The position numbers and the translations under genes are program-made. From Escherichia coli (lineage in GTDB: Bacteria > Pseudomonadota > Gammaproteobacteria > Enterobacterales > Enterobacteriaceae), in the NCBI RefSeq assembly GCF_024223415.1, contig NZ_CP100500.1: 64,000 bases of DNA. One strand, given 5' to 3'. Shown in pieces: positions 1,979 to 42,600 of the stretch. The notes below the pieces were generated by a model that saw only the letters and a program-made list of their open reading frames with translations, was not told the origin of the DNA and did not search any database. How positions within the stretch are numbered: the first letter of the stretch is position 1; the number at the start of each line of letters is the position of its first letter.

Positions 1979-2084
1979 GCGTCAATACGGTGCTCCGTTG
2001 ACGCTTACCGTTTACCGGATAATGAGCGAAAATATCCTGTTGTTACATGACAAACCATCACGACCGCAGCGGGAACATAAAGGC

Positions 2085-2610
2085 CGAATATCGGTAAGGA
2101 AAGCGACCAGCGTTGATGTTCTGATGGCTTTGAGTTCGGTTGCGATGATGGCGAAAAAGTCCGGGTTACGTTCGCTCTGGACTGTTGCGATCGTGAAGCT
2201 ATCGACTGGGCATCCAATACGGGAGGTTACAATAAAGCGACAGTGCAGGATGTGATGTTAGGAGCGATAGAAAAACTCTTTGGCGATAAAGTACCGGAAC
2301 AGTCCATCCGGTGGTTGACAGATAACGGTTCAGCGTATAGAGCGCATGAAACACGGCAGTTCGCCAGAGAGTTGGATCTGGAGCCCTGCACAACGGCAAT
2401 CAGCAGCTCTCAGAGTAATGGAATGGCAGAAAGGTTAGTGAAAACGATGAAGGAAGACTACATTGCGTTCATACAGAAACCGAATGTAATAACGGCATTG
2501 CATAACCTTGCATAGGCGTTCGAGAATTACAATGAGAACCACCCGCATAGTGCGTTAGGTTATCTCTCACCACGGGAATATCGATGTCAGCGGATAACGT
2601 CACCTTAGAT
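2085..2610 (+). pseudogene. IS3-family (IS2-group) transposase OrfB C-terminal remnant
   Basis: Translation ...[24 protein letters not shown]...[25 protein letters not shown]...[12 protein letters not shown]... aligns with IS2 InsD (15776..16681) but has an internal stop and frame change and no N-terminal half. Confidence 0.7.
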
Positions 2611-2784
2611 GTAGCAGTTGCCAAACAGTGACTCAAGGGCAGGCTTACCGCATACACTGACACTTAGCGGATCGACAGAATATTATTAACAGTTCATCAC
2701 TGAACGCTACATAATCAGAGTTGCATAAATAAAATGTTATGTTATAACATTTTAATACCGACATATGTTTTCGGATGTATATGA

Positions 2785-4755
2785 ATGTATATGAATGTAA
2801 TCAGAACTGTCATTTGTACATTAATTATAGTCCCGGTGGGACTACAGGCAGCGACCAGTCATTCTTCTATGGCTAAAGATACAATCACCATTGTCGCGAC
2901 AGGAAATCAGAACACGGTATTTGAAACGCCGTCGATGGTCAGTGTCGTCACGAATGACACACCGTGGAGTCAGAATGCGGTTACATCGGCCGGCATGCTG
3001 AAAGGTGTTGCCGGTCTCAGCCAGACTGGTGCAGGACGGACCAATGGGCAGACCTTTAATCTACGCGGCTATGACAAAAGCGGGGTACTTGTTCTTGTTG
3101 ACGGCGTCCGCCAACTTAGTGACATGGCAAAAAGCAGTGGCACTTATCTGGATCCGGCTCTTGTCAAACGTATCGAAGTTGTCCGCGGGCCAAACTCCAG
3201 TCTGTACGGCAGTGGCGGGCTGGGAGGTGTAGTGGACTTCAGAACTGCCGATGCAGCAGATTTCCTTCCCCCCGGAGAGACAAACGGTTTAAGTCTGTGG
3301 GGAAATATTGCCAGTGGTGACCACAGCACAGGCTCGGGGCTCACCTGGTTCGGTAAAACCGGAAAAACAGATGCGCTCCTTTCTGTCATTATGCGTAAAA
3401 GAGGTAATATCTATCAAAGTGATGGTGAGCGCGCACCTAACAAGGAAAAACCTGCAGCCCTGTTTGCGAAAGGCTCTGTCGGTATAACAGACAGTAACAA
3501 AGCAGGTGCCAGCTTGCGTCTCTACCGGAATAACACCACTGAACCGGGCAATCCCACTCAGACACATGGTGACAGCGGCCTGCGTGACAGAAAAACAGTA
3601 CAAAATGACGTACAGTTCTGGTACCAGTACGCTCCTGTGGATAACAGCCTCATCAATGTACAGTCAACGTTATATCTCAGTGATATCACTATCAAGACAA
3701 ACGGTCACAACAAAACGGCAGAATGGAGAAACAACAGAACCTCCGGTGTTAATGTTGTCAACAGGAGTCATACTCTGATTTTTCCGGGAGCCCATCAGTT
3801 AAGTTATGGCGCTGAATATTACCGTCAGCAGCAGAAGCCAGAAGGCTCTGCCACACTATATCCGGAAGGAAATATTGACTTTACATCGTTGTATTTCCAG
3901 GATGAAATGACAATGAAAAGCTACCCTGTTAACATTATCGTCGGTTCCCGCTATGACCGGTACAAGAGCTTCAATCCCCGTGCCGGAGAACTGAAAGCCG
4001 AACGCCTGTCCCCAAGGGCGGCGATTTCAGTCTCACCGACAGACTGGCTGATGATGTACGGCTCCATATCCTCTGCATTCCGAGCGCCCACAATGGCAGA
4101 AATGTACAGGGATGATGTACATTTTTACCGCAAGGGTAAACCCAATTACTGGGTTCCTAACCTTAATCTGAAACCAGAAAATAACATCACCCGTGAGATT
4201 GGCGCAGGTATTCAACTGGATGGCCTGCTTACAGACAATGACCGGCTGCAGTTAAAAGGCGGATATTTCGGAACGGATGCCAGAAACTATATTGCCACAC
4301 GCGTGGATATGAAACGGATGCGTTCTTATTCTTATAATGTATCCCGGGCCCGTATCTGGGGATGGGATATGCAGGGAAATTACCAGTCTGATTATGTTGA
4401 CTGGGTGCTTTCTTATAACCGGACGGAAAGTATGGATGCCAGCAGCAGGGAATGGCTGGGCTCCGGCAATCCTGACACACTTATCAGTGACATCAGCATA
4501 CCTGTTGGTCATAGAGGCGTTTATGCCGGATGGCGTGCTGAACTTTCAGCATCAGCCACGCATGTGAAAAAAGGCGACTCCTATCAGGCTGGCTATGCCA
4601 TACATTCCTTTTCACTGTCTTATAAGCCTGTAAGTGTTAAAGGCTTTGAGGCGTCAGTAACTCTGGATAATGCCTTCAACAAGCTTGCCATGAATGGCAA
4701 AGGTGTGCCGCTTTCAGGCCGAACTGTCAGTCTTTATACCCGTTATCAGTGGTAA
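2785..4755 (+). CDS. TonB-dependent outer-membrane receptor, heme/hemoglobin type
   Basis: 656 aa; signal peptide, plug-domain motifs, FRAP motif (SAFRAPTMAEMY) and NPNL-like box (VPNLNLKPE), C-terminal aromatic residue (YQW). Confidence 0.85.
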   Translation: MYMNVIRTVICTLIIVPVGLQAATSHSSMAKDTITIVATGNQNTVFETPSMVSVVTNDTPWSQNAVTSAGMLKGVAGLSQTGAGRTNGQTFNLRGYDKSGVLVLVDGVRQLSDMAKSSGTYLDPALVKRIEVVRGPNSSLYGSGGLGGVVDFRTADAADFLPPGETNGLSLWGNIASGDHSTGSGLTWFGKTGKTDALLSVIMRKRGNIYQSDGERAPNKEKPAALFAKGSVGITDSNKAGASLRLYRNNTTEPGNPTQTHGDSGLRDRKTVQNDVQFWYQYAPVDNSLINVQSTLYLSDITIKTNGHNKTAEWRNNRTSGVNVVNRSHTLIFPGAHQLSYGAEYYRQQQKPEGSATLYPEGNIDFTSLYFQDEMTMKSYPVNIIVGSRYDRYKSFNPRAGELKAERLSPRAAISVSPTDWLMMYGSISSAFRAPTMAEMYRDDVHFYRKGKPNYWVPNLNLKPENNITREIGAGIQLDGLLTDNDRLQLKGGYFGTDARNYIATRVDMKRMRSYSYNVSRARIWGWDMQGNYQSDYVDWVLSYNRTESMDASSREWLGSGNPDTLISDISIPVGHRGVYAGWRAELSASATHVKKGDSYQAGYAIHSFSLSYKPVSVKGFEASVTLDNAFNKLAMNGKGVPLSGRTVSLYTRYQW

Positions 4756-4773
4756 CCTCTCAGGAAATAAATC

Positions 4774-5565
4774 ATGATGAAAAATACAGGCTATATCTTA
4801 GCTCTTTGTCTGACAGCATCGGGGCATGTCCTGGCCCATGATGTCTGGATTACCGGCAAACAGGCAGAGAACAACGTTATCGCAGAGATTGGTTATGGTC
4901 ATAATTTCCCCTCAAAGGGCACGATTCCTGACAGAAGGGATTTCTTTGAAACTCCCCGGCTTTATAACGGGAAAGAGACAATAACGCTGAAGCCAACATC
5001 CACGGATTATGTCTATAAAATTGAGACTGCAGGCAACGGTAATAGCTACGTTCTGTCAACGAAAATGAAACCGGGATACTGGTCGAGAACCTCGTCAGGA
5101 TGGAAGCCTGTCAGCCGGGAGGGCAGAAATGATGTGGCATACTGTGAGTTTGTGACTAAATATGCAAAATCTTTTATTCCTGGTGAACAGCAGATGCCAG
5201 CACAACTCTATCAGTATCCAATAGGGGATGAGCTTGAAATCATTCCGTTATCCGATATCAGTCGTTTCGGTGAAGATGTGAAGCTGAAAGTTCTGTATAA
5301 AACTTCCCCGCTTGCCGGAGCCACTCTGGAGCTTGACTCTGTCAGTTATCTGAAATCATCCCGCCATACTCATGCGGCAGAGCATAAACATTCGGCTCAT
5401 AAAGCAGAACTTACCTTTGTAAGTAATGAGGACGGTATCATCACTGTACCCTCCCTTCATGTCGGGCAATGGCTAGCTAAAGTCAAAAATAAGAAAGTAT
5501 TTCAGGACAAAAACCTGTGTGATGAAACTGTCGATGTGGCAACCTTAAGCTTCTCCCGAAATTAA
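4774..5565 (+). CDS. Secreted periplasmic protein, DUF4198-like, receptor-associated
   Basis: 263 aa with signal peptide; mature N-terminus AHDVWITG; immediately downstream of the receptor in the same orientation (19-bp gap); family assignment from memory only. Confidence 0.6.
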   Translation: MMKNTGYILALCLTASGHVLAHDVWITGKQAENNVIAEIGYGHNFPSKGTIPDRRDFFETPRLYNGKETITLKPTSTDYVYKIETAGNGNSYVLSTKMKPGYWSRTSSGWKPVSREGRNDVAYCEFVTKYAKSFIPGEQQMPAQLYQYPIGDELEIIPLSDISRFGEDVKLKVLYKTSPLAGATLELDSVSYLKSSRHTHAAEHKHSAHKAELTFVSNEDGIITVPSLHVGQWLAKVKNKKVFQDKNLCDETVDVATLSFSRN

Positions 5566-5575
5566 TAATACTATT

Positions 5576-5600
5576 CCTGCCCTGTAATTTACGGGCAGGG
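5576..5600 (+). terminator. Stem-loop downstream of the receptor operon
   Basis: Inverted repeat CCTGCCC...GGGCAGG 10 bp after the stop at 5565. Confidence 0.4.
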
Positions 5601-5811
5601 TATATCAACCGGAAATAGCCTACTGACATCCATGTATAAAGCCACATAATTATTTTGTTGATGTATCTTACCTAATACGTAAGCGTAAAGCCAATGCCGT
5701 CTGTAACTCCTGATCCTTGCAGACTAAATGTAAGCGCCCTATCAGCGACGTCTTGTGAAAATTGTCCTGTCTGGCAACAATTGCGCCCATCTATATTGAT
5801 GGACACGAACG

Positions 5812-6486
5812 ATGAATTCCCAGACAACAAAAGATATTCTCTGCTTCCGTTCTTATTTGCCTGATGCCCTACGTTTAAGATTTGAAGATAAACTGACTAT
5901 CCGAGCCATCGCTCAGCGTCTAGGTCTCAGTCATTCCACAATACATACGCTTTTTCAGCGATTTCTTGCATCCGGTATCGCATGGCCATTGCCCGATTCA
6001 GTTTCATTCGCTCAACTTGACGCCATCCTTTATGCCAACAGAAAGAAGGAATTAACAGAGCCTCAAATCAGAGAAGGCTCATGGCGAAAAGAACGGCGAA
6101 CCAGCTATAGCCGTGAATTTAAGGTCCGTCTGGCTAAGCAGGCATTACAGCCTGGTGCTGTTGTTGCCCGGATCGCCAGAGAACACGATATCAATGATAA
6201 GCTGCTGTTTAAATGGAAAAGCCAGTACGAGGACGGCTTACTGAGCGATGATGACATACAGGAATGCATGCCTGTCCCGGTGGCACTGACTGATAAGCCA
6301 GAGCCGACCAGACCAGTTACAAATCCCTTCTGGCGTAACAAGCCTGATGAGCGCCCTGAGGGGGATCCCGGAAACGTCCCACGGTGCGAGCTGCATCTTA
6401 AATCAGGTGTGGTAAAACTGTTTGACCCTCTCACTCCGGAACTGTTACGGGCGCTAATCCGCGAAATGAAAGGGGGTACCCGATGA
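5812..6486 (+). CDS. IS66-family accessory protein, TnpA-like with N-terminal extension
   Basis: 224 aa; central region ...YSREFKVRLAKQALQPGAVVARIAREHDINDKLLFKWKSQY... resembles IS66 Orf1 HTH; overlaps tnpB start. Confidence 0.7.
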   Translation: MNSQTTKDILCFRSYLPDALRLRFEDKLTIRAIAQRLGLSHSTIHTLFQRFLASGIAWPLPDSVSFAQLDAILYANRKKELTEPQIREGSWRKERRTSYSREFKVRLAKQALQPGAVVARIAREHDINDKLLFKWKSQYEDGLLSDDDIQECMPVPVALTDKPEPTRPVTNPFWRNKPDERPEGDPGNVPRCELHLKSGVVKLFDPLTPELLRALIREMKGGTR

Positions 6487-6830
6487 TAACGCTGCCGACC
6501 GGTACCAAAATCTGGATCATCGCTGGCATCACAGATATGCGTTGTGGCTTCAATGGCCTGGCTTCGAAGGTGCAGAACACGCTGAAAGATGACCCGTTCT
6601 CCGGGCATATCTTCGTCTTCCGGGGCCGCAGTGGCAAAATGGTGAAAATACTGTGGGCCGATCGTGATGGGTTATGCCTGTTCGCCAAACGCCTGGAACG
6701 GGGCCGCTTCATCTGGCCGGTGACCCGGGAAGGGAAAGTGCACCTGACGCCAGCTCAGTTATCCATGCTACTGGAGGGGATCGCGTGGCAACATCCCAAA
6801 CGGACAGAACGGCCTGGCATCCGGATATAA
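6483..6830 (+). CDS. tnpB: IS66-family TnpB
   Basis: 115 aa MITLPTGTKIWIIAGITDMRCGFNGL...; paralogous to the other TnpB copies. Confidence 0.9.
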   Translation: MITLPTGTKIWIIAGITDMRCGFNGLASKVQNTLKDDPFSGHIFVFRGRSGKMVKILWADRDGLCLFAKRLERGRFIWPVTREGKVHLTPAQLSMLLEGIAWQHPKRTERPGIRI

Positions 6831-6849
6831 CCCGTGATAAAACAAGGGA

Positions 6850-8454
6850 ATGAACAATGAACTCCCCGACGATATTGAGCTGCTTAAAGCCATGTTGCGT
6901 AAGCAACAGAGTCGGCTTCGCCAGTATACCTGTCAGGTCGCGGGCTATGAGCAGGAAATTGAACGGCTGAAAGCGCAACTCGACAGGTTGCGTCGTATGT
7001 TGTTCGGCCAGAGTTCAGAGAAAAAGCGTCATAAGCTTGAAAATCAGATCCGACAGGCAGAAAAACGACTGTCGGAACTGGAAAACCGGCTGAACACAGC
7101 CAGAAATCTTCTGGAAGATGCATCGTCAGTCACAGATTCACCTGACACCAGTCCCCCGTCAGAAAACCCGATCGCCAGTAAGCCTGAATCCCTGGGACGA
7201 AAATCTTCACGAAAACCGCTGCCGGCAGAACTTCCCCGGGAGACACATCGCCTTCTGCCTGCTGAAACCAGTTGCCCGGCCTGTGGAGGTGTTCTGAAAG
7301 AAATGGGGGAAACAATCTCAGAGCAACTGGATATCATTAATACCGCCTTTAAAGTTATTGAAACCATACGTCCCAAACGGGCCTGTAGCCGGTGCGACCA
7401 TATTGTGCAGGCGCCGGTTCCTTCAAAACCCATTGCACGCAGTTATGCCGGAGCGGGGCTTCTGGCTCATATCGTCACCGGGAAGTATGCAGACTATCTG
7501 CCGTTATACCGCCAGTCAGAAATATACCGTCGTCAGGGCGTGGAACTGAGCCGCGCCACGCTGGGGCGCTGGACCGGTGCCGTTGCTGAACTGCCGGAGC
7601 CGCTGTATGACGTGCTGCGCCAGTATGTGCTGATGCCCGGTAAAGTCCATGCGGATGATATCCCCGTTCCGGTCCAGGAGCCGGGCAGCGGTAAAACCCG
7701 GACAGCCCGGCTGTGGGTCTACGTCCGTGATGACCGCAATGCCGGTTCGGAAATGCCCCTGGCGGTCTGGTTCGCGTACAGTCCGGACCGGAAAGGCATA
7801 CATCCCTAGACTCATCTGGCCGGTTACAGCGGAGTGCTTCAGGCCGATGCTTACGGTGGCTACCGGGCGTTATACGAATCCGGCAGAATAACGGAAGCCG
7901 CGTGTATGGCTCATGCCCGGAGAAAAATCCACGATGTGCATGCAAGAGTGCCAACCGACATCACCACGGAAGCCCTGCGGCGTATCGGTGAACTGTATGT
8001 CATCGAGGCAGAAGTCCGGGGATGTTCAGCAGAACAGCGTCTGGCGGTAAGAAAAGCCAGAGCTGCGCCACTGATGCAGTCACTGTATGACTGGATACAG
8101 ACTCAGATGAAAACACTGTCGCGTCACTCGGATACGGCAAAAGCGTTCGCATACCTGCTGAAACAGTGGGATGGCCTGAACGTGTACTGCAGTAATGGCT
8201 GGGTGGAAATCGACAACAACATCGCAGAGAACGCCTTACGGGGAGTGGCCGTAGGCCGGAAAAACTGGCTCTTCGCGGGTTCCGACAGCGGTGGCGAACA
8301 TGCGGCGGTGTTGTACTCGCTGATCGGCACATGCCGTCTGAACAATGTGGAACCAGAAAAATGGCTGCGTTACGTCATTGAGCATATCCAGGACTGGCCG
8401 GCAAACCGGGTACGCGATCTGTTGCCCTGGAAAGTGGATCTGACCTCTCAGTAA
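6850..8454 (+). pseudogene. tnpC: IS66-family transposase TnpC interrupted by an in-frame TAG at 7807..7809
   Basis: ORFs 6850..7809 and 7834..8454 are in the same frame; the paralog at 44049..45587 reads ...[10 protein letters not shown]... where this copy reads ...KGIHP*THLA..., consistent with CAG to TAG. Confidence 0.85.
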
Positions 8455-8491
8455 ATATCAATACGGTTCTGGCGAGCCGCTTACGAACAAT

Positions 8492-10205
8492 GTGAATTAT
8501 GTTAATTATGTTTTCAGGCAGATGCTTCTCTGTCTGTTATTGTTCTGGCTGCCTGTATCCTGGGCTACCGAAAGTGGCTGGTTGCGTTCTCCTGAGAATG
8601 AGCATGCCAGTATACGGATACGTGCTGATTCCGTGGTCTCCGGGGAAACACGTGTTTTGCTGGACGTTAAACTGGATAACGGCTGGAAAACTTACTGGCG
8701 CTCACCCGGATAAGGGGGGATTGCACCGTCAGTCGACTGGAAAAGTGAAACACCGGAAGTGGAGTGGTACTGGCCTGGCCTTCACGTTTTGACGTGGCCG
8801 GCATTACCACTACGGGATATCACAACACAGTCACGTTTCCCGTGGTGTTACGTGGTATATCACCTGAGAGGATCACTGGCGTACTGACCCTGCCTGTCTG
8901 CAGCAATGTCTGTCTGCTGACCGATTACCCTTTCACTGTGAATGTTTCCACACAGGATACAACATTTGCACATGATTACGCACAGGCCATGGGGAAAATT
9001 CCGCTTTCCCATGGGGTAGCGGATTCCTTAAACGCGGTTTACCGACCTGGTGGACTGCTCATTACCGCAATACGGGCAGACGGCTGGTCATCTCCGGATA
9101 TTTATCTGGATTCTGTTGATTATGCAAGCTTCGGTAAGCCGCAGATGCAGATTGACGGCAAGAATCTGCTCGCATCTGTGCCGGTCACGGACAACTGGGG
9201 AGAGGGGGCGCCGGACCTGACTGGCCAACAAGTCACACTGGTTATTGAAAGCGGCGGCCTCGCTCAGGAAAGTACGCTTACGGTTGCGGCAGGTGCAACC
9301 AAAATAGCAGAGAATGTCTTACCTCTTTGGCAGGTCACTCTGATGGCATTAGCTGGTGGACTCATTCTTAACCTGATGCCCTGTGTATTACCGGTTCTGG
9401 GGATGAAGCTGGGCTCAGTTTTACTGGTGGAAGAGAAAAACCGTCAGCAGATTCGATGTCAGTTTCTGATGTCTGTAGCCGGGATCCTTACTTCCTTTAT
9501 GGCTCTGGCTACGTTAATGACCCTTCTGCGGCTGACAAACCGGGCTCTGGGGTGGGGGATCCAGTATCAGAGTCCCTGGTTTATTGTTCTGATGACGCTG
9601 GTTATGCTGATTTTTAGTGCCAGTCTGTTTGGCCTGTTTGAGTTCCGCCTGCCTTCCGGCCTCATGACTCGTCTGGCGACATTTGGTGGTAATGGAATGT
9701 CCGGACATTTCTGGCAGGGCGCTTTTGCGACTCTTCTGGCGACACCGTGTAGCGCCCCCTTCCTCGGTACGGCAGTGGCAGTGGCGCTGACGGCATCACT
9801 ACCCACTCTGTGGGGGATTTTCTTTGCACTGGGCGTGGGAATGAGTCTTCCGTGGCTGTTGGTGGCGTTGCGACCCGGGCTTGCGTTGTGTTTGCCCCAT
9901 CCGGGAGGATGGATGAATATTTTGCGTCGGGTGCTTGGCCTGATGATGCTGGGTTCTGCCTTCTGGCTGACAACACTGTTACTGCCACACTTGGGAGTAT
10001 CCTCACACAGTACAACGAAAGAACAGGTTGTCTGGCAGCCTCTCAGTGAACAGGCGATTAAGGAGGCGCTGGCTCAGCATAAGCGGGTATTTATCGATGT
10101 GACTGCAGACTGGTGTGTTACCTGTAAATTCAATAAATACAATGTGCTGCAAAAAGACAATGTGCAGAAGTCGCTGCAGGAGGCGGATGTTGTTGCACTG
10201 CGTGG
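8492..10205 (+). pseudogene. scsB: DsbD-family thiol:disulfide interchange protein (ScsB-like), decayed and 3'-truncated
   Basis: N-terminal ORF stops at TAA 8711..8713, frame resumes in 8764..; central transmembrane core and C-terminal thioredoxin motif WCVTCK present; reading frame runs into IS629 at 10206. Confidence 0.7.
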
Positions 10206-10259
10206 TGAACCGCCCCGGGAATCCTGGAGACTAAACTCCCTGAGAAAGAGGTAAACAGA

Positions 10260-10586
10260 ATGACTAAAAATACTCGTTTTTCCCCCGAAGTCCGTCAGAG
10301 GGCGATTCGTATGGTTCTGGAAAGTCAGGGCGAATATGACTCACAGTGGGCGGCAATTTGTTCCATTGCCCCAAAGATTGGCTGTACACCGGAGACTCTG
10401 CGTGTCTGGGTACGCCAGCATGAGCGGGATACCGGAGGCGGTGATGGCGGGCTCACCACCGCTGAACGTCAGCGTCTGAAAGAGCTGGAACGTGAAAATC
10501 GTGAACTGCGCCGCAGTAACGATATCCTTCGCCAGGCTTCCGCTTATTTTGCGAAGGCGGAGTTCGACCGCCTCTGGAAAAAGTGA
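10260..10586 (+). CDS. IS629 OrfA
   Basis: [59 protein letters not shown]... Confidence 0.9.
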
Positions 10587-11473
10587 TGCCACTGCTGGAT
10601 AAGCTGCGTAAGCTGTACGGGGTCGGACCGGTATGCAGTGAACTACATATTGCCCCGTCAACGTATTACCACTGTCAGCAACAGCAGCATCATCCTGATA
10701 AACGCAGCGCCCGTGCGCAGCGTGATGACTGGCTGAAGAAAGAGATACAGCGCGTATACGATGAAAATCACCAGGTGTACGGTGTGCGTAAAGTCTGGCG
10801 TCAGTTGTTACGGGAAGGTATCAGAGTGGCCAGATGCACTGTGACACGTCTTATGGCGGTTATGGGTTTTGCCGATGTTCTCCGGGGTAAAAAGGTCCGC
10901 ACTACCGTCAGCCGGAAAGCCGTTGCCGCAGGCGACCGCGTAAACCGTCAGTTTGTGGCAGAACGTCCTGACCAGTTGTGGGTGGCTGATTTTACTTACG
11001 TCAGCACATGGCAGGGGGTCGTCTATGTGGCGTTCATCATTGATGTGTTTGCCGGATACATCGTGGGGTGGCGGGTCTCATCGTCTATGGAAACGACATT
11101 CGTGCTGGATGCTCTGGAGCAGGCGTTATGGGCCCGTCGACCGTCCGGCACAGTCCATCACAGTGATAAAGGTTCTCAGTATGTATCGCTGGCCTACACA
11201 CAGCGGCTTAAGGAAGCCGGATTACTGGCATCAACAGGAAGTACTGGTGACTCGTATGACAACGCGATGGCGGAGAGCATCAATGGCCTTTACAAAGCGG
11301 AGGTAATACACCGTAAGAGCTGGAAAAACCGGACAGAAGTGGAGCTGGCCACACTCACGTGGGTGGACTGGTATAACAATCGACGATTGCTGGAAAGGCT
11401 GGGCCATATCCCACCGGCAGAAGCAGAAAAAGCTTATTATGCTTCCATCGGAAACGATGATCTGGCAGCCTGA
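10583..11473 (+). CDS. IS629 OrfB (DDE transposase)
   Basis: 296 aa with integrase catalytic core ...[13 protein letters not shown]...[10 protein letters not shown]...; overlaps OrfA as in IS3-family frameshift arrangement. Confidence 0.9.
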
Positions 11474-11523
11474 GTTCACAGATAAAACACTCTCCAGGAA
11501 ACCCGGGGCGGTTCACTCCGGAG

Positions 11524-17820: not shown

Positions 17821-18690
17821 TCATCCCCTGAACACCTCCCGCCGGTGCCACGCCACAAACCCCTCCTGGGGATAGCATTCTTTCCCCATCGGCAAGGTAA
17901 TCGGCTTACCATCAAAATCCCAGAACAACCTGCCAACGATGCCTCCGCCGTTCACCGCCGGCGAAACCTGGATGCGCATATCCTCATCCAGACCAATGGA
18001 TCCTTTATCAAAATCCTTATGGTGAATCGCGCAGAGCGCCAGGCCGTTAGGGATTTCGCAGGGGCCGCCGTGCTGCTTCCACTTGATATGGGCCGCTTCC
18101 AGGGCGACGGAGGTATTATCATGGCGCATATTGAAGCCGCAGATAGCGCACTCATAGTTATAGGCGCGCAGCACCTGCTGGCGAAAATGCGGGTCGCGCT
18201 CTTTGCGGATCTGCAGCAGATCAAACCCCATCTCTTCAGCCAGTTCTTCCTGAATACTCTCCGGAAAGTGCGCCTCAAGGATCTGATGGGCGAGGGTATT
18301 GATCAGCTTCTTATTTCTGTTAAGTAACGCAAAATGCTGCTCATCAAAGCCGCCGGCGACGTGGCAGAGCTCCAGCTCTTTGCCGGGCGGCTGTCGGCTG
18401 CCCTGGGTTGAGCACTGTTCGCTGTTGTGTAGCTCCCAGAAGCCGTCGCCTTTCAGGCGCCAGAAGGGCATGTCCGGCCGGTACTGGCGGCGCTGCGGGC
18501 CAAAGCGTTCCAGCAGGCTATGCAGCTCATCACGTATCTCCGAGGCGTAGTCGAACATCCGCGCATGGCCGCGCTGGTATTGCGAGAGGACGTACAGCAG
18601 CAATAGTGGTTTATGCGGCGCACGCTGTTCGCCTTTGCGCCAGATGGTGATGTTCTCGATCGCGTGTTGCAGGGTCGTGCTGGAGGGCAT
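17821..18690 (-). CDS. HNH endonuclease with an N-terminal putative modified-DNA-binding domain (candidate type IV restriction enzyme)
   Basis: 290 aa from the ATG at 18690; C-terminal HNH motif ...YNYECAICGFNMRHDNTSVALEAAHIKWKQHGGPCEIPNGLALCAIHHKDFDKG...; N-terminal about 170 aa (...APHKPLLLLYVLSQYQRG...FWRLKGDGFWEL...) recalled as resembling sulfur-binding-domain-HNH proteins. Confidence 0.6.
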   Translation of the reverse strand: MPSSTTLQHAIENITIWRKGEQRAPHKPLLLLYVLSQYQRGHARMFDYASEIRDELHSLLERFGPQRRQYRPDMPFWRLKGDGFWELHNSEQCSTQGSRQPPGKELELCHVAGGFDEQHFALLNRNKKLINTLAHQILEAHFPESIQEELAEEMGFDLLQIRKERDPHFRQQVLRAYNYECAICGFNMRHDNTSVALEAAHIKWKQHGGPCEIPNGLALCAIHHKDFDKGSIGLDEDMRIQVSPAVNGGGIVGRLFWDFDGKPITLPMGKECYPQEGFVAWHRREVFRG

Positions 18691-18869
18691 AGCGTTACAT
18701 TGGCAGCTAAATAAATGCGATGATGCTCGCAAAATCCTTGCCGATCAACCTACCAGATGCGGCGATTCTACGTGGATCGCGATTTAATTATCACTGCCAG
18801 TTATTTGTTCGAAAAGACCATAGCTTTCTATTTATACTCAAGCTTCGCGCCATCAGATAGCTATGTCTT

Positions 18870-19508
18870 ATGAAAAAACTACCGGACCATTTATCCAGGG
18901 AATGCATCATCGCCGCCATTCGCGCTTACGATGCAGGCGTTGCGCATCAGTTTAAAAGCGCGCGTCTGTATGAGATCGAGTTTGAGGGGCGTCGGTATCC
19001 TTCAAAAGCCATCGTCGGGTTAGCGGCCACGCTTGCGACGGGAACGGAATTTACCCCGGCGGATTTCAGCGGGGGGATTAAATCAAAATGCGTGCGTCTG
19101 TTACTGGAGCAAGGATTTACGATCGCGTCGCAGGGCGCTGGCGATGACGAGGTTGCGCTTTTCCCCGATGAGGGGCAGACGACCATGGAGTACGTGGAAG
19201 GGGCGGCGTTGCAGGTGGTGGTCAATCGCTATGAGCGCGACCGTCAGGCTCGTCAGGCGGCGCTTCGCCTGCATGGCTGCCAGTGTCAGGTATGCGGTCT
19301 GGATATGGCCAGCCGCTATGGCGATATCGGCCAGGGCTTTATCCATATCCACCATCTCATCCCGCTGGCCGGGATAAAGCAGGACTACCGCCTGAACCCT
19401 GAAACCGATCTGATCCCGGTATGTCCCAACTGCCATGCGATGCTGCACCGGCGAGATCCGCCGTTTACCCCCGAAGAGCTGAAGGCCCGGCTGCGCCCCA
19501 CAGACTGA
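18870..19508 (+). CDS. HNH endonuclease with a distinct N-terminal domain of unknown function
   Basis: 212 aa; C-terminal zinc-finger HNH ...CQCQVCGLDMASRYGDIGQGFIHIHHLIPLAG...PVCPNCHAMLH...; divergent from 17821..18690 across a 179-bp intergenic region. Confidence 0.6.
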   Translation: MKKLPDHLSRECIIAAIRAYDAGVAHQFKSARLYEIEFEGRRYPSKAIVGLAATLATGTEFTPADFSGGIKSKCVRLLLEQGFTIASQGAGDDEVALFPDEGQTTMEYVEGAALQVVVNRYERDRQARQAALRLHGCQCQVCGLDMASRYGDIGQGFIHIHHLIPLAGIKQDYRLNPETDLIPVCPNCHAMLHRRDPPFTPEELKARLRPTD

Positions 19509-39668: not shown

Positions 39669-42600
39669 ATGAATAAAGTTTATTCCCTTCGCTACAGCGC
39701 TGTGGCCCGGGGCTTTATTGCTGTATCTGAGTTTGCGAGGAAATGTGTTCATAAGTCTGTCAGAGGCCTGAGTTTTCCGGTTTTATTACTGTCCCCCGTA
39801 CTTTTCTCTACAGGAGGCCTTGCGGGAACAGTCAATAATGAACTTGGCTATCAGTCATTTCGTGATTTTGCTGAGAATAAAGGTATGTTCCGCCCGGGAG
39901 CAACGAATATCGCCATTTATAATAAGCAGGGAGAGCTTGTCGGCACGCTGGAAAAAGCGGCTATGCCGGATTTCAGTTCCGTAAATTCAGGAAACGGTGT
40001 GGCGACACTAATTAACCCGCAGTATATCGCCAGCGTGAAACATAACGGGGGATATACAAACGTCAGCTTTGGTTATGGTGAAAGCCGTTACAATATCGTG
40101 GACCGGAATAATGCGGCGTCACTGGATTTTCATGCTCCCAGACTGGATAAACTGGTGACAGAGGTTGCCCCGGCTGCGGTGACGGCGCAAGGGGCAGTGG
40201 CTGGCGCATATCTGGATAAGGAACGTTATCCTGTTTTTTATCGTCTTGGCTCCGGAACCCAGTATATTAAGGACAGTAACGGACAGCTGACACAAATGGG
40301 AGGAGCATATTCCTGGCTGACTGGCGGGACTGTCGGTAGTCTGTCATCCTATCAGAATGGAGAAATGATTAGCACCAGTTCAGGTCTGGTTTTTGATTAC
40401 AAACTTAATGGTGCAATGCCCATTTATGGCGAGGCCGGTGACAGTGGTTCGCCTTTATTTGCTTTTGATACTGTTCAGAATACATGGGTTCTTGTTGGTG
40501 TTCTCTCTGCGGGGAATGGAGCGGGGGGCAGGGGAAATAACTGGGCTGTTATTCCACTGGATTTTATCAGACAAAAATTTAATGAGGACAATGATGCCCC
40601 GGTCACATTCAGAACATCGGAAGGTGGTGCGCTGGAGTGGGGCTTTAACAGCAGCACCGGAGCTGGCACGCTGACACAGGGAACCACCACATATGCCATG
40701 CACGGGCAGCAGGGAAATGACCTGAATGCCGGTAAAAATCTGATATTTCTGGGACAGAATGGACAGATTGACCTGAAAGACAATGTTGCACAGGGGGCAG
40801 GTTCTCTGACATTCCATAATGATTATACGGTTGCAACTTCAAACAACAGTACCTGGACCGGTGCCGGTATTATTGTGGATAAAGGCGTGTTCGTAAACTG
40901 GCAGGTTAACGGTGTTAAAGGCGATAACCTGCATAAGATTGGTGAAGGTACGCTGACGATACAGGGCACGGGTATCAATGAGGGTGGTCTGAAGGCCGGG
41001 GACGGAACCGTTGTTCTGAAACAGCAGGCAGACAGTAACGGGCAGGTGCAGGCCTTCAGTAGTGTGAATATTGCCAGCGGACGACCGACAGTAGTGCTGA
41101 CTGATGACCGGCAGGTAAATCCGGATAACATCTCCTGGGGATACAGGGGAGGTATTCTGGATGTTAACGGTAATGATATTGGCTTTCACGAAATAAAGGC
41201 GGCAGATTATGGTGCTCAAATCCACAATGGCAGTAACAAAAATGCAATAATCTCTCTGGTTATGCATGATGCCATTAAGTGGACCGGGAAAGATACACCA
41301 AGAATTTTAGGTCGGGTTTATGAGTATTTCAATGATGAAACGCAGAAGACTGAATTCTTTATATTAAAAACCAGCAGTATTGCGTGGTCTCCTTCGCCTG
41401 GAGAAAAATTTTTTCCGGATATGTTCAGAGGTGCTGATTATTTTAATACTCTTGAGGATGCGGACAAAGAGGCCAGAAAAAATACACAATATATTTTCCA
41501 TGGTAAATTAACCGGTAATATCAGTTTTAACCCGAAGAGTGCCGGTACGTTTGTTATGGATGGTTCTGCTGATATGTCCGGAACCTTCACCCGGGAAAAC
41601 GGGCGTCTGACACTGCAGGGTCATCCGGTTATCCATGCATACAATACACAGTCTGTGGCTGACAAACTTGCTGCCAGTGGAGACCATTCGGTTTTGAATC
41701 AGCCCACGTCATTCAGTCAGGAGGACTGGGAGAATCGCAGTTTTACCTTTGACAGACTGTCACTGAAGAACACCGATTTTGGCCTTGGCCGTAATGCCAT
41801 GCTGAACACCACGCTTGAAGCAACAGATTCGACTGTCACACTGGGCGACAGCCGGGTCTTTATTGACAAAAACGACGGTAACGGTACGGCTTTTACGCTG
41901 GAAGAAGGCACATCAGAAGCGGTGAAGGATGCAGACCGTAGCGTGTTTAATGGCAGTGCTGTTCTGTACGGGAAGACGACGCTGGATATCATGAACGCAA
42001 CCTTTAATGGTGATATCAGCGGTCATGCCGGCTCGCATGTGGAGTTGTCGCGCCGGAGTCACTGGAATATGACGAAAAGCTCCACGCTGGATTCGTTCAG
42101 AAGCAAAGGCGGGACGCTCTCCTTTGTGACAGACAACTGGTCGCCGAAAACGCTGACGGTAAACACACTGCATGCCAGCAGTATGAATATCGCCATGGGG
42201 GTCAGCACCGCCGACAACACGGGCGACCGGATTGATATCCTGAATAAGGCAACGGGGGGACATAACACACTGGACCTGTCCTCCCTGTTTGATCAGACTG
42301 TCACACTGAAAAATGACCTGACTCTGGCATCTGCACCGGTCGGAACTTCTCACGGGTACTTCTCCTTTGCCAGCCTGAACAGGGGGTTTACTGTTTATAC
42401 CCCTGACACACAGGTGCAGGAGAAAGACGGCAGAGTTTACTGGCAACTGAAAAATAACGCTGGTCTGGCGGACTCACAGGCACAACCGGTATCGGAAAAT
42501 GAAATCCGGATGGTTGCGGCGGATGGTGATAGTGGTAACAACCGCGCGGATGAATCTGGTTCCGCTGTTTCCGGAAAGAACTCAGAGGTTACCGTGAAAG

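Follow-up and report, generated by a model that had tools for sequence, protein, structure and literature searches.

ChuA and ShuA, the haem receptors of Escherichia coli and Shigella, ligate haem through His86 at the plug apex and His420 in an extracellular loop. On the zinc side, ZnuABC, ZupT and ZinT work no further out than the periplasm. Whether a TonB-dependent receptor or porins carry zinc across the enterobacterial outer membrane was described as unclear in a 2013 review (PMC3852070). The known Zur-regulated TonB-dependent zinc receptors are ZnuD and the Caulobacter proteins ZnuK/ZnuL (PMC4176598). ZnuD of Neisseria was first annotated as a haem transporter because of shared motifs, yet it binds zinc, not haem (PMC4557270). 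Among DUF4198 proteins, gonococcal Zcp, a periplasmic dimer under Zur regulation, uses His29/His31/His142 to bind zinc (PMC12663993), and an Ideonella protein binds nickel by its N-terminal His and conserved His18, in a study that also noted DUF4198 genes beside TonB receptors in a nickel context (PMC12537917). Here we report a wholly computational analysis of a 64,000-nucleotide (nt) stretch of the E. coli contig NZ_CP100500.1 (hereafter the window, to which coordinates refer unless another locus is named). It carries a two-gene cassette, composed of a ChuA-like receptor gene and a downstream DUF4198 gene. We propose that window 2721–5599 is probably a Zur-repressed zinc-acquisition operon expressed under zinc shortage, and that its two genes most likely serve pathogenic E. 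coli as a hitherto uncharacterised uptake pair for zinc starvation.

Predicted Zur control of the receptor–DUF4198 operon

Upstream of the receptor gene lies a putative promoter with a −35 element TTGCAT (2721–2726), a 16-nt spacer and a −10 element TATAAC (2743–2748). It was read directly off the sequence; a consensus scan stayed silent on this segment because the −10 ends in C. The TTGCA of the −35 is kept in E. coli and Klebsiella alleles. Overlapping the spacer and the −10, the predicted Zur box AAAATGTTATGTTATAACATTTT agrees with 19 of the 22 specified positions of the gamma-proteobacterial consensus GAAATGTTATANTATAACATTTC. It is the sole such site in the 64 kb, and none of 100 shuffles gave one. 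Comparison with the validated K-12 Zur operators placed the window site (3 mismatches to the consensus) after znuA/znuC (2 mismatches) and nearer the consensus than zinT (4 mismatches) and ykgM (6 mismatches), with a 16-nt core, TGTTATGTTATAACAT, identical to the ykgM operator core. An operator that overlaps the promoter is the usual geometry for repression. Likeness to validated E. coli sites and overlap with the promoter, the two marks of Zur-regulon membership, coincide at this site, and control of the receptor–DUF4198 operon by Zur is strongly predicted. The DUF4198 gene starts 18 bp past the receptor stop and has an AGGA ribosome-binding site 8 nt upstream, from which we infer that the two genes are co-transcribed.

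Other metalloregulators found no comparable footing. The first-pass annotation of this DNA had seen in the receptor an iron-acquisition function and named a Fur-box search upstream of 2785 as a test. That search found nothing above background, and the Zur box stands there instead; lack of iron regulation, which the annotation itself had listed as refuting its reading, is thus indicated in silico. No Fur box within 3 mismatches of the consensus occurs anywhere in the window, and a permissive scan of 300 nt upstream gave a best match of 12/19, located inside an insertion sequence (IS) remnant and ordinary for random 300-nt windows; on sequence grounds, Fur control was rejected. NikR-type sites appear in the window at chance frequency only, and NikR control was rejected as well.

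We then considered how far this arrangement is conserved. DUF4198 relatives formed only 17 clusters at E 1e-30 or better among 1.84 billion representatives, and genomic context was fetched for the closest of them; a narrower genome scan with the DUF4198 alignment yielded 10 loci, one of which is enterobacterial. A receptor of 648–662 aa is encoded immediately 5′ of the DUF4198 gene in Salmonella enterica subsp. diarizonae, in Providencia rettgeri, on a Klebsiella pneumoniae plasmid and in a divergent E. coli allele. The pair also occurs in three metagenomic lineages, in one of which the contig ends within the receptor gene (453-aa fragment). Every clade receptor examined is followed by a DUF4198 gene, and the receptors of orthologous cassettes are 47–55% identical to that of the window. 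Apart from the Klebsiella plasmid and one metagenomic locus (L034), each locus contains a single Zur box or exact core, 20–60 bp upstream of the receptor. Salmonella diarizonae and the chromosomal and IncF plasmid alleles of E. coli have the full box (2–3 mismatches), whereas Providencia rettgeri and the L035 metagenomic cassette have its 14-nt core in exact form; the divergent E. coli allele carries ACAATGTTATGATATAACATTGC. When seven upstream regions were aligned, invariant columns fell only inside the Zur box, and the other upstream DNA was unrelated. We count this persistence of the box amid unrelated DNA in favor of Zur regulation.

Two stand-alone DUF4198 relatives, neither accompanied by a receptor gene, extend the pattern: L027 (34% identity) has an exact Zur core upstream (4918–4940), and L025 (38% identity) a weaker Zur-like site with 5 mismatches (258–280). 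From these sites, Zur control seems to be a trait of the whole DUF4198 subfamily and not of the receptor-linked members alone, in agreement with the published Zur control of gonococcal zcp (PMC12663993).

The receptor, its partner and their proposed function

The receptor comprises Plug and TonB_dep_Rec barrel domains, with a TonB box DTITIVATG at residues 32–40, FRAP at residues 432–435 and a degenerate NPNL box (NLNL, 459–462). Its best solved relatives are ChuA (9dhe) and ShuA (3fhh), with E about 1e-166, and it is 42% identical to ChuA over the full length. The earlier label of a haem-type receptor fits the family; the plug histidine, a Fur box and linked haem genes were not found. Of the FRAP and NPNL boxes with their intervening histidine, FRAP and His446 are present and NPNL reads NLNL. 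Comparison with ChuA, ShuA and Hma, a check proposed at the same time, confirmed the relation to ChuA and ruled out Hma, as hma (beside cobU in CFT073) encodes a 715-aa protein with 29% identity, confined to the plug. An orthologue of ZnuD was likewise ruled out (46.7 bits against NF038289, with a cut-off of 950, plug only), and no alignable ZnuD barrel match was found. For neither cassette protein was a specific gene name found, identical entries in public collections being labelled generically, and no mention of the RefSeq accessions of the cassette proteins was found in the literature.

At the plug apex, T84-G-H86 of ChuA is replaced by M114-A-K116. Those of the 120 best-scoring relatives that were full-length were aligned with the receptors from the fetched loci; the cassette clade splits off by score (667–1475 bits versus ≤600). 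At the ChuA His86 position, 11 of 12 cassette-clade receptors have Lys and the remaining one Ile, versus His in all 105 canonical relatives (from Citrobacter, Buttiauxella, Serratia and others), which carry His at the His420 position too. The remaining clade-invariant differences from ChuA gather around these two positions, with Met114 for T84 and Ser118 for N88 in the plug and, next to His446 (the counterpart of His420), Arg442 for N416 and Tyr448 for S422. The alignment suggests that the receptor is a ChuA-type descendant minus the plug haem-ligating histidine.

The partner protein matches Pfam DUF4198 (PF10670, E 9e-25), as the first-pass annotation had correctly assigned it. A signal peptide is predicted, with cleavage between VLA and HD, directly before His22. 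Its closest solved relative is gonococcal Zcp (9mhi, E 3e-22), as compared with E 0.14 by sequence for the nickel protein 9gcb. The AlphaFold (AF2) model (predicted local distance difference test score, 87.6) has a putative three-layer beta-sandwich fold, and Foldseek aligned it with template modeling (TM) scores of 0.74–0.84 to all Zcp entries and 0.81 to the Ni-bound Ideonella protein (IsDUF4198, 9gcb). His22, which would form the N-terminus after cleavage, is invariant in 19 homologues; His43, in a GYGH43 motif, is invariant in the cassette clade; and the Cys124/Cys249 disulfide pair is nearly invariant. A His-rich loop, RHTHAAEHKHSAH, spans residues 197–209 and is modeled with low confidence and predicted to be disordered. 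Such a loop, variable in sequence, is found in nine of the ten closest aligned homologues, all cassette partners included (HHHDHRSH...HHEH in Salmonella, EEHHHHDHQ in L035). By sequence comparison, His22 and His43 are likely equivalent to the IsDUF4198 nickel site, and by analogy the partner is expected to bind a divalent metal through His22, His43 and the flexible His-rich loop.

The partner gene is a repeated IS target. On pO104_H7, a plasmid of Shiga toxin-producing E. coli (L037, 6995–13071), it is split by two inverted ISEc23 copies with its 3′ part inverted and the receptor gene intact, and in GF60 it is split by an IS3-family element. In the divergent E. coli allele (L031/L032), the receptor is 97.6% identical to that of the window and the DUF4198 protein only 74%, indicating either that a recombination breakpoint lies within the cassette or that the partner has evolved much faster.

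In the proposed mechanism, zinc-loaded Zur would sit on the box and block the promoter, and under zinc limitation it would leave the operator so that both genes are transcribed. The receptor, energized by TonB, would move zinc through the outer membrane, whether as the free ion or after stripping it from a carrier. On the periplasmic side, the DUF4198 protein could then capture it via the N-terminal His, His43 and the His-rich loop, and hold it ready for import by ZnuA/ZnuBC or for zinc enzymes of the periplasm, with the core ZnuABC system as the expected recipient. What the sequences show directly is the features themselves and their conservation among orthologous cassettes; zinc as the cargo we infer from the regulator and the partner's family, together with the hand-off to ZnuABC. 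That the closest solved relative of the partner is itself a Zur-regulated zinc-capture protein counts toward zinc, and the misannotation of ZnuD is a direct precedent for a haem-receptor label hiding a zinc receptor.

Several observations weigh against this proposal. The receptor scores 413.5 bits against the NCBIfam model TIGR01785 (TonB-hemin), above its curated cut-off of 316.85, and retains the loop-7 histidine as His446. No clade-specific conserved His, Asp or Glu has been gained, so that no ZnuD-like zinc pocket is obvious; this lack of a new His/Asp/Glu cluster is the main weakness of a receptor for free zinc. In the partner, the Zcp zinc triad H29/H31/H142 reads Q/E/E, and its metal site is consequently modeled on the nickel-binding homologue. 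In the Klebsiella pneumoniae plasmid allele (L029, 3960–4000), the Zur box is reduced to its right half (CGTTATAACATTAC), which may weaken or alter regulation. In the L034 metagenomic contig (4382–7825 and 7940–7975), the cassette directly follows a Sit/Yfe-like Mn/Fe ABC transporter that has a Fur-like box of its own, and the receptor is preceded by a perfect 9-3-9 palindrome of Fur-family type, TGATGATAT-GTT-ATATCATCA, assigned to neither Zur nor Fur. No linked inner-membrane transporter was found in E. coli, and no experimental report on the cassette in any organism was found in a literature search that left most subscription journals outside its reach. Two further details concern these loci: at L029, a second AATGTTAT lies 8 bp downstream of the Zur half-site, and the ZnuA-family transporter beside the L024/L034 cassette, considered at first as zinc evidence, was dropped because it is Sit/Yfe-like (Mn/Fe) with a Fur-like box.

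The hemin-model score, the full-length identity to ChuA, the FRAP box and the retained loop-7 histidine would all suit the initial proposal of a functional haem or haemoglobin receptor serving iron acquisition, with the DUF4198 protein as an unconventional accessory. Clade-invariant Met114 by the plug apex could in principle stand in for His86 as axial ligand, and Met/His haem ligation occurs in other proteins. We nevertheless consider a haem function quite improbable, given that a strong, conserved Zur box is found where the best Fur match is background, that no clade member retains His86, which all canonical receptors have, that the NPNL box is degenerate, and that no haem transport or degradation genes (chuS/T/U/V-type) occur in the window or at any orthologous locus examined. 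The partner's family, moreover, binds divalent cations, not haem (PMC12663993, PMC12537917). Those cations need not be zinc, and the pair might import nickel, cobalt or copper: outside Neisseria, the DUF4198 protein characterised best is a binder of Ni(II) via His1/His18, with a dissociation constant of 18 nM, and TonB receptors and NikR are encoded near its relatives (PMC12537917); Cu, Co and Ni are bound in Zcp crystals as well (PMC12663993), and the partner keeps the His1/GYGH site. The operator, however, is a Zur box, with NikR-like matches at chance level, and the partner is by sequence much nearer to Zcp than to the nickel protein. E. coli already imports nickel via NikABCDE, under NikR. 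Taken together, a metal other than zinc appears highly doubtful.

A different question is the form in which zinc would arrive. The receptor might take it from a carrier, such as a metallophore, zinc protoporphyrin or a host zinc-binding protein, and the DUF4198 protein would receive the released metal. Such a route would explain a barrel that derives from receptors docking haemoglobin and binding porphyrin, with one axial histidine kept, the other lost and no ZnuD-like acidic/histidine pocket gained; in zinc porphyrins, the metal accepts just one axial ligand. Zur-regulated receptors of Neisseria, for their part, pull zinc out of calprotectin and S100A7 (PMC12663993). Still, this is inference throughout, the cassette has no biosynthetic, dechelating or carrier genes near it, and a cation-binding periplasmic partner suits a free ion emerging in the periplasm. 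Uptake from a carrier seems unlikely. A specific version, in which a haem-receptor barrel has been re-tooled for zinc piracy, taking the metal from a host carrier (zinc protoporphyrin on His446, possibly with Met114, or a host zinc-binding protein) and passing it to the DUF4198 acceptor, has a slim chance of being correct; if true, it would represent the first TonB-dependent zinc import described in E. coli, Salmonella and Klebsiella.

Locus layout, flanking insertion sequences and mobility

The features that had been described at 2009–5679 were all found, at most one base off, and these limits mark the IS junctions almost exactly (Table 1). The hairpin behind the DUF4198 gene has a fold energy of −16 kcal/mol with a z-score of only −1.7 and lacks a T-tract, which makes it a marginal, weak candidate for a terminator. 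The 10-bp duplication at the receptor start introduces an upstream ATG at 2775, out of frame with the receptor, together with an overlapping open reading frame (ORF) of 33 codons; the duplication is shared by the window, ECCNB12-2 and GF60, is not found in IMT5155 or the IncF plasmid allele, and could lower receptor translation.

Table 1 Features of the cassette and its immediate surroundings in the window
Feature	Position	Strand	Remark
ISEc23-like IS66-family element	1–2008 (5′ part beyond window start)	+	Context, outside the system
IS2-like (IS3-family) transposase remnant	2009–~2608	+	Frameshifted; truncated by ISEc23 insertion
Likely sigma-70 promoter	2721–2748	+	Read from the sequence
Predicted Zur box AAAATGTTATGTTATAACATTTT	2731–2753	+	Overlaps spacer and −10; 32 bp 5′ of receptor ATG
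10-bp tandem duplication (ATGTATATGA ×2)	2775–2794	+	At receptor start
TonB-dependent outer-membrane receptor, 656 aa, ChuA/ShuA paralogue	2785–4755	+	
DUF4198 (Zcp-like) protein, 263 aa, predicted periplasmic metal-binding	4774–5565	+	
Hairpin CCTGCCCTG-TAATT-TACGGGCAGG	5576–5599	+	3′ of DUF4198 stop; possible terminator
Second, distinct IS66-family element	5679–8484	+	Context, outside the system

The upstream ISEc23-like element contains a partial tnpB (38–334) and an intact tnpC (365–1978) encoding a 537-aa TnpC that matches the IS66 transposase model NF033517 with 447 bits; its right inverted repeat ends ...GACGCTTAC at 2008, and RefSeq labels it ISEc23 at the identical GF60 junction. The downstream element has the ends GTAAGCG...CGCTTAC with intact tnpA (5812–6486) and tnpB (6483–6830), and its tnpC is broken into 6850–7809 and 7834–8454 (319 + 206 aa), where RefSeq marks an internal stop. 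The IS3-family remnant reported between them was borne out by an ORF at 2243–2515 that matches the IS2 TnpB model (E 2e-32), and RefSeq annotates its homologue in IMT5155 as a frameshifted DDE transposase pseudogene. As to the "two directly oriented IS66 elements" of the first-pass annotation, both do belong to the IS66 family and lie on the + strand, but they are different elements and not two copies: their TnpC proteins are 49% identical, and likeness at the DNA level is limited to short stretches of 73–83%.

The same annotation likened the 3.7-kb segment and its two IS66-family flanks to a composite-transposon-like unit able to move an iron-acquisition function. Beyond the common family and orientation of the flanks, a composite transposon moving the cassette between replicons could appeal to the presence of the cassette on both chromosomes and IncF plasmids, at 92–96% identity, and to IS66-family elements lying repeatedly near it. 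The junctions and the distribution of the block point the other way. In GF60, whose ISEc23 junction matches that of the window, an 8-bp duplication, CGTTTACC, brackets the element, and IMT5155 keeps the uninterrupted target (empty site) GCGCGTTTACCGGATAATG, indicating that ISEc23 arrived as a simple, separate insertion into an older IS2-like remnant. The flanks of the downstream element, CCTAATAC and GAACAATG, are unrelated and show no target duplication, and its left junction is common to IMT5155 and ECCNB12-2, both without ISEc23; the outer flanks of the pair do not match. A search for the same unit elsewhere, suggested alongside the transposon idea, found the whole IS–cassette–IS block in no complete E. 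coli genome searched, and the cassette occurs without it. Plasmid homology is confined to window 2692–5662, which takes in the promoter, the two genes and the hairpin but neither IS. In the IncF plasmid examined, the cassette has a PapB-family regulator gene on one side, a LuxR fragment on the other and no flanking IS66 element, and other strains have one flanking IS or a different arrangement. With dissimilar flanks and a broken downstream tnpC besides, a composite transposon is already contradicted, and we give it almost no credence. The cassette itself, present in 421 of 5,426 complete E. coli genomes (~8%) on chromosomes and plasmids, is clearly mobile in evolutionary terms; the IS pair of the window is not its vehicle but consists of unrelated bystanders.

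The surroundings form a mosaic pathogenicity-island segment with many IS elements and an integrase (55701–56963), and no tRNA gene in the window. At the end of the second IS66 element begins a gene for a DsbD/ScsB-like protein-disulfide reductase (8492–11480 region), which is frameshifted and cut at ~10254 by an IS3-family element (orfA 10260–10586, orfB 10583–11473). The same island carries a defence pair at 17824–19508, in which a phosphorothioated-DNA-binding restriction endonuclease gene (NF045808, 438 bits) adjoins an HNH endonuclease gene. A 1,274-aa ORF at 39669–43493 has no NCBIfam match at E 1e-20; the near-identical GF60 region is annotated with an S6-family peptidase, of the type of the serine protease autotransporters of Enterobacteriaceae (SPATE).

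Relation to known systems

A plug-His-less, ChuA-derived receptor, a Zcp-like protein with a different metal site and a canonical Zur box appear to be an undescribed combination in Enterobacteria; we found no report of a Zur-regulated receptor in E. coli or other Enterobacteria, most subscription journals being outside the search. Carriers of the cassette include avian-pathogenic and extraintestinal E. coli, plasmids of Shiga-toxin strains and of Klebsiella, Salmonella diarizonae and Providencia. A Zur-repressed zinc-acquisition operon in these bacteria offers a concrete, easily testable candidate for an outer-membrane zinc route against host zinc sequestration, and, if real, would link the Zcp family to a dedicated receptor for the first time. 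It would also illustrate that automated "haem/haemoglobin receptor" labels can conceal zinc systems, as they did for ZnuD.

Among haem receptors, Hma (c2482 of uropathogenic E. coli CFT073), the second one of E. coli, is also TonB-dependent and located on a genomic island of a pathogenic strain, but it is a separate gene whose product resembles the window receptor over the plug only. ChuA/ShuA match the window receptor in TonB box, FRAP box and loop-7 histidine and differ from it in having plug His86 in place of Lys116 and NPNL in place of NLNL. They are accompanied by Fur control and the chu haem-utilisation genes, whereas the window cassette has a Zur box, no chu genes and a DUF4198 gene next to the receptor.

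For the partner, IsDUF4198 of Ideonella sakaiensis provides the N-terminal His and second His site that appears kept as His22/His43, and genes of its group neighbour TonB receptors as the window DUF4198 gene does; identity in the structural alignment is only 17%, and its context is nickel and NikR as opposed to Zur. Zcp (NGO1049 of Neisseria gonorrhoeae) has in common with the partner the fold, the Cys pair, a periplasmic location (predicted here) and an upstream Zur box. In place of the Zcp triad, the partner has GYGH and an internal His-rich loop, and zcp is monocistronic, whereas the window gene presumably shares an operon with a receptor. ZnuD of Neisseria meningitidis has no DUF4198 operon partner described (PMC4557270), in contrast to the window receptor, and its ligands Asp99/His100/Glu340/His499 and His/Asp-rich loop 3 have no recognisable counterpart there. 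As a Zur-controlled outer-membrane receptor that likewise bears haem-receptor motifs, ZnuD nonetheless serves as our working model for the function of the cassette (PMC4557270).

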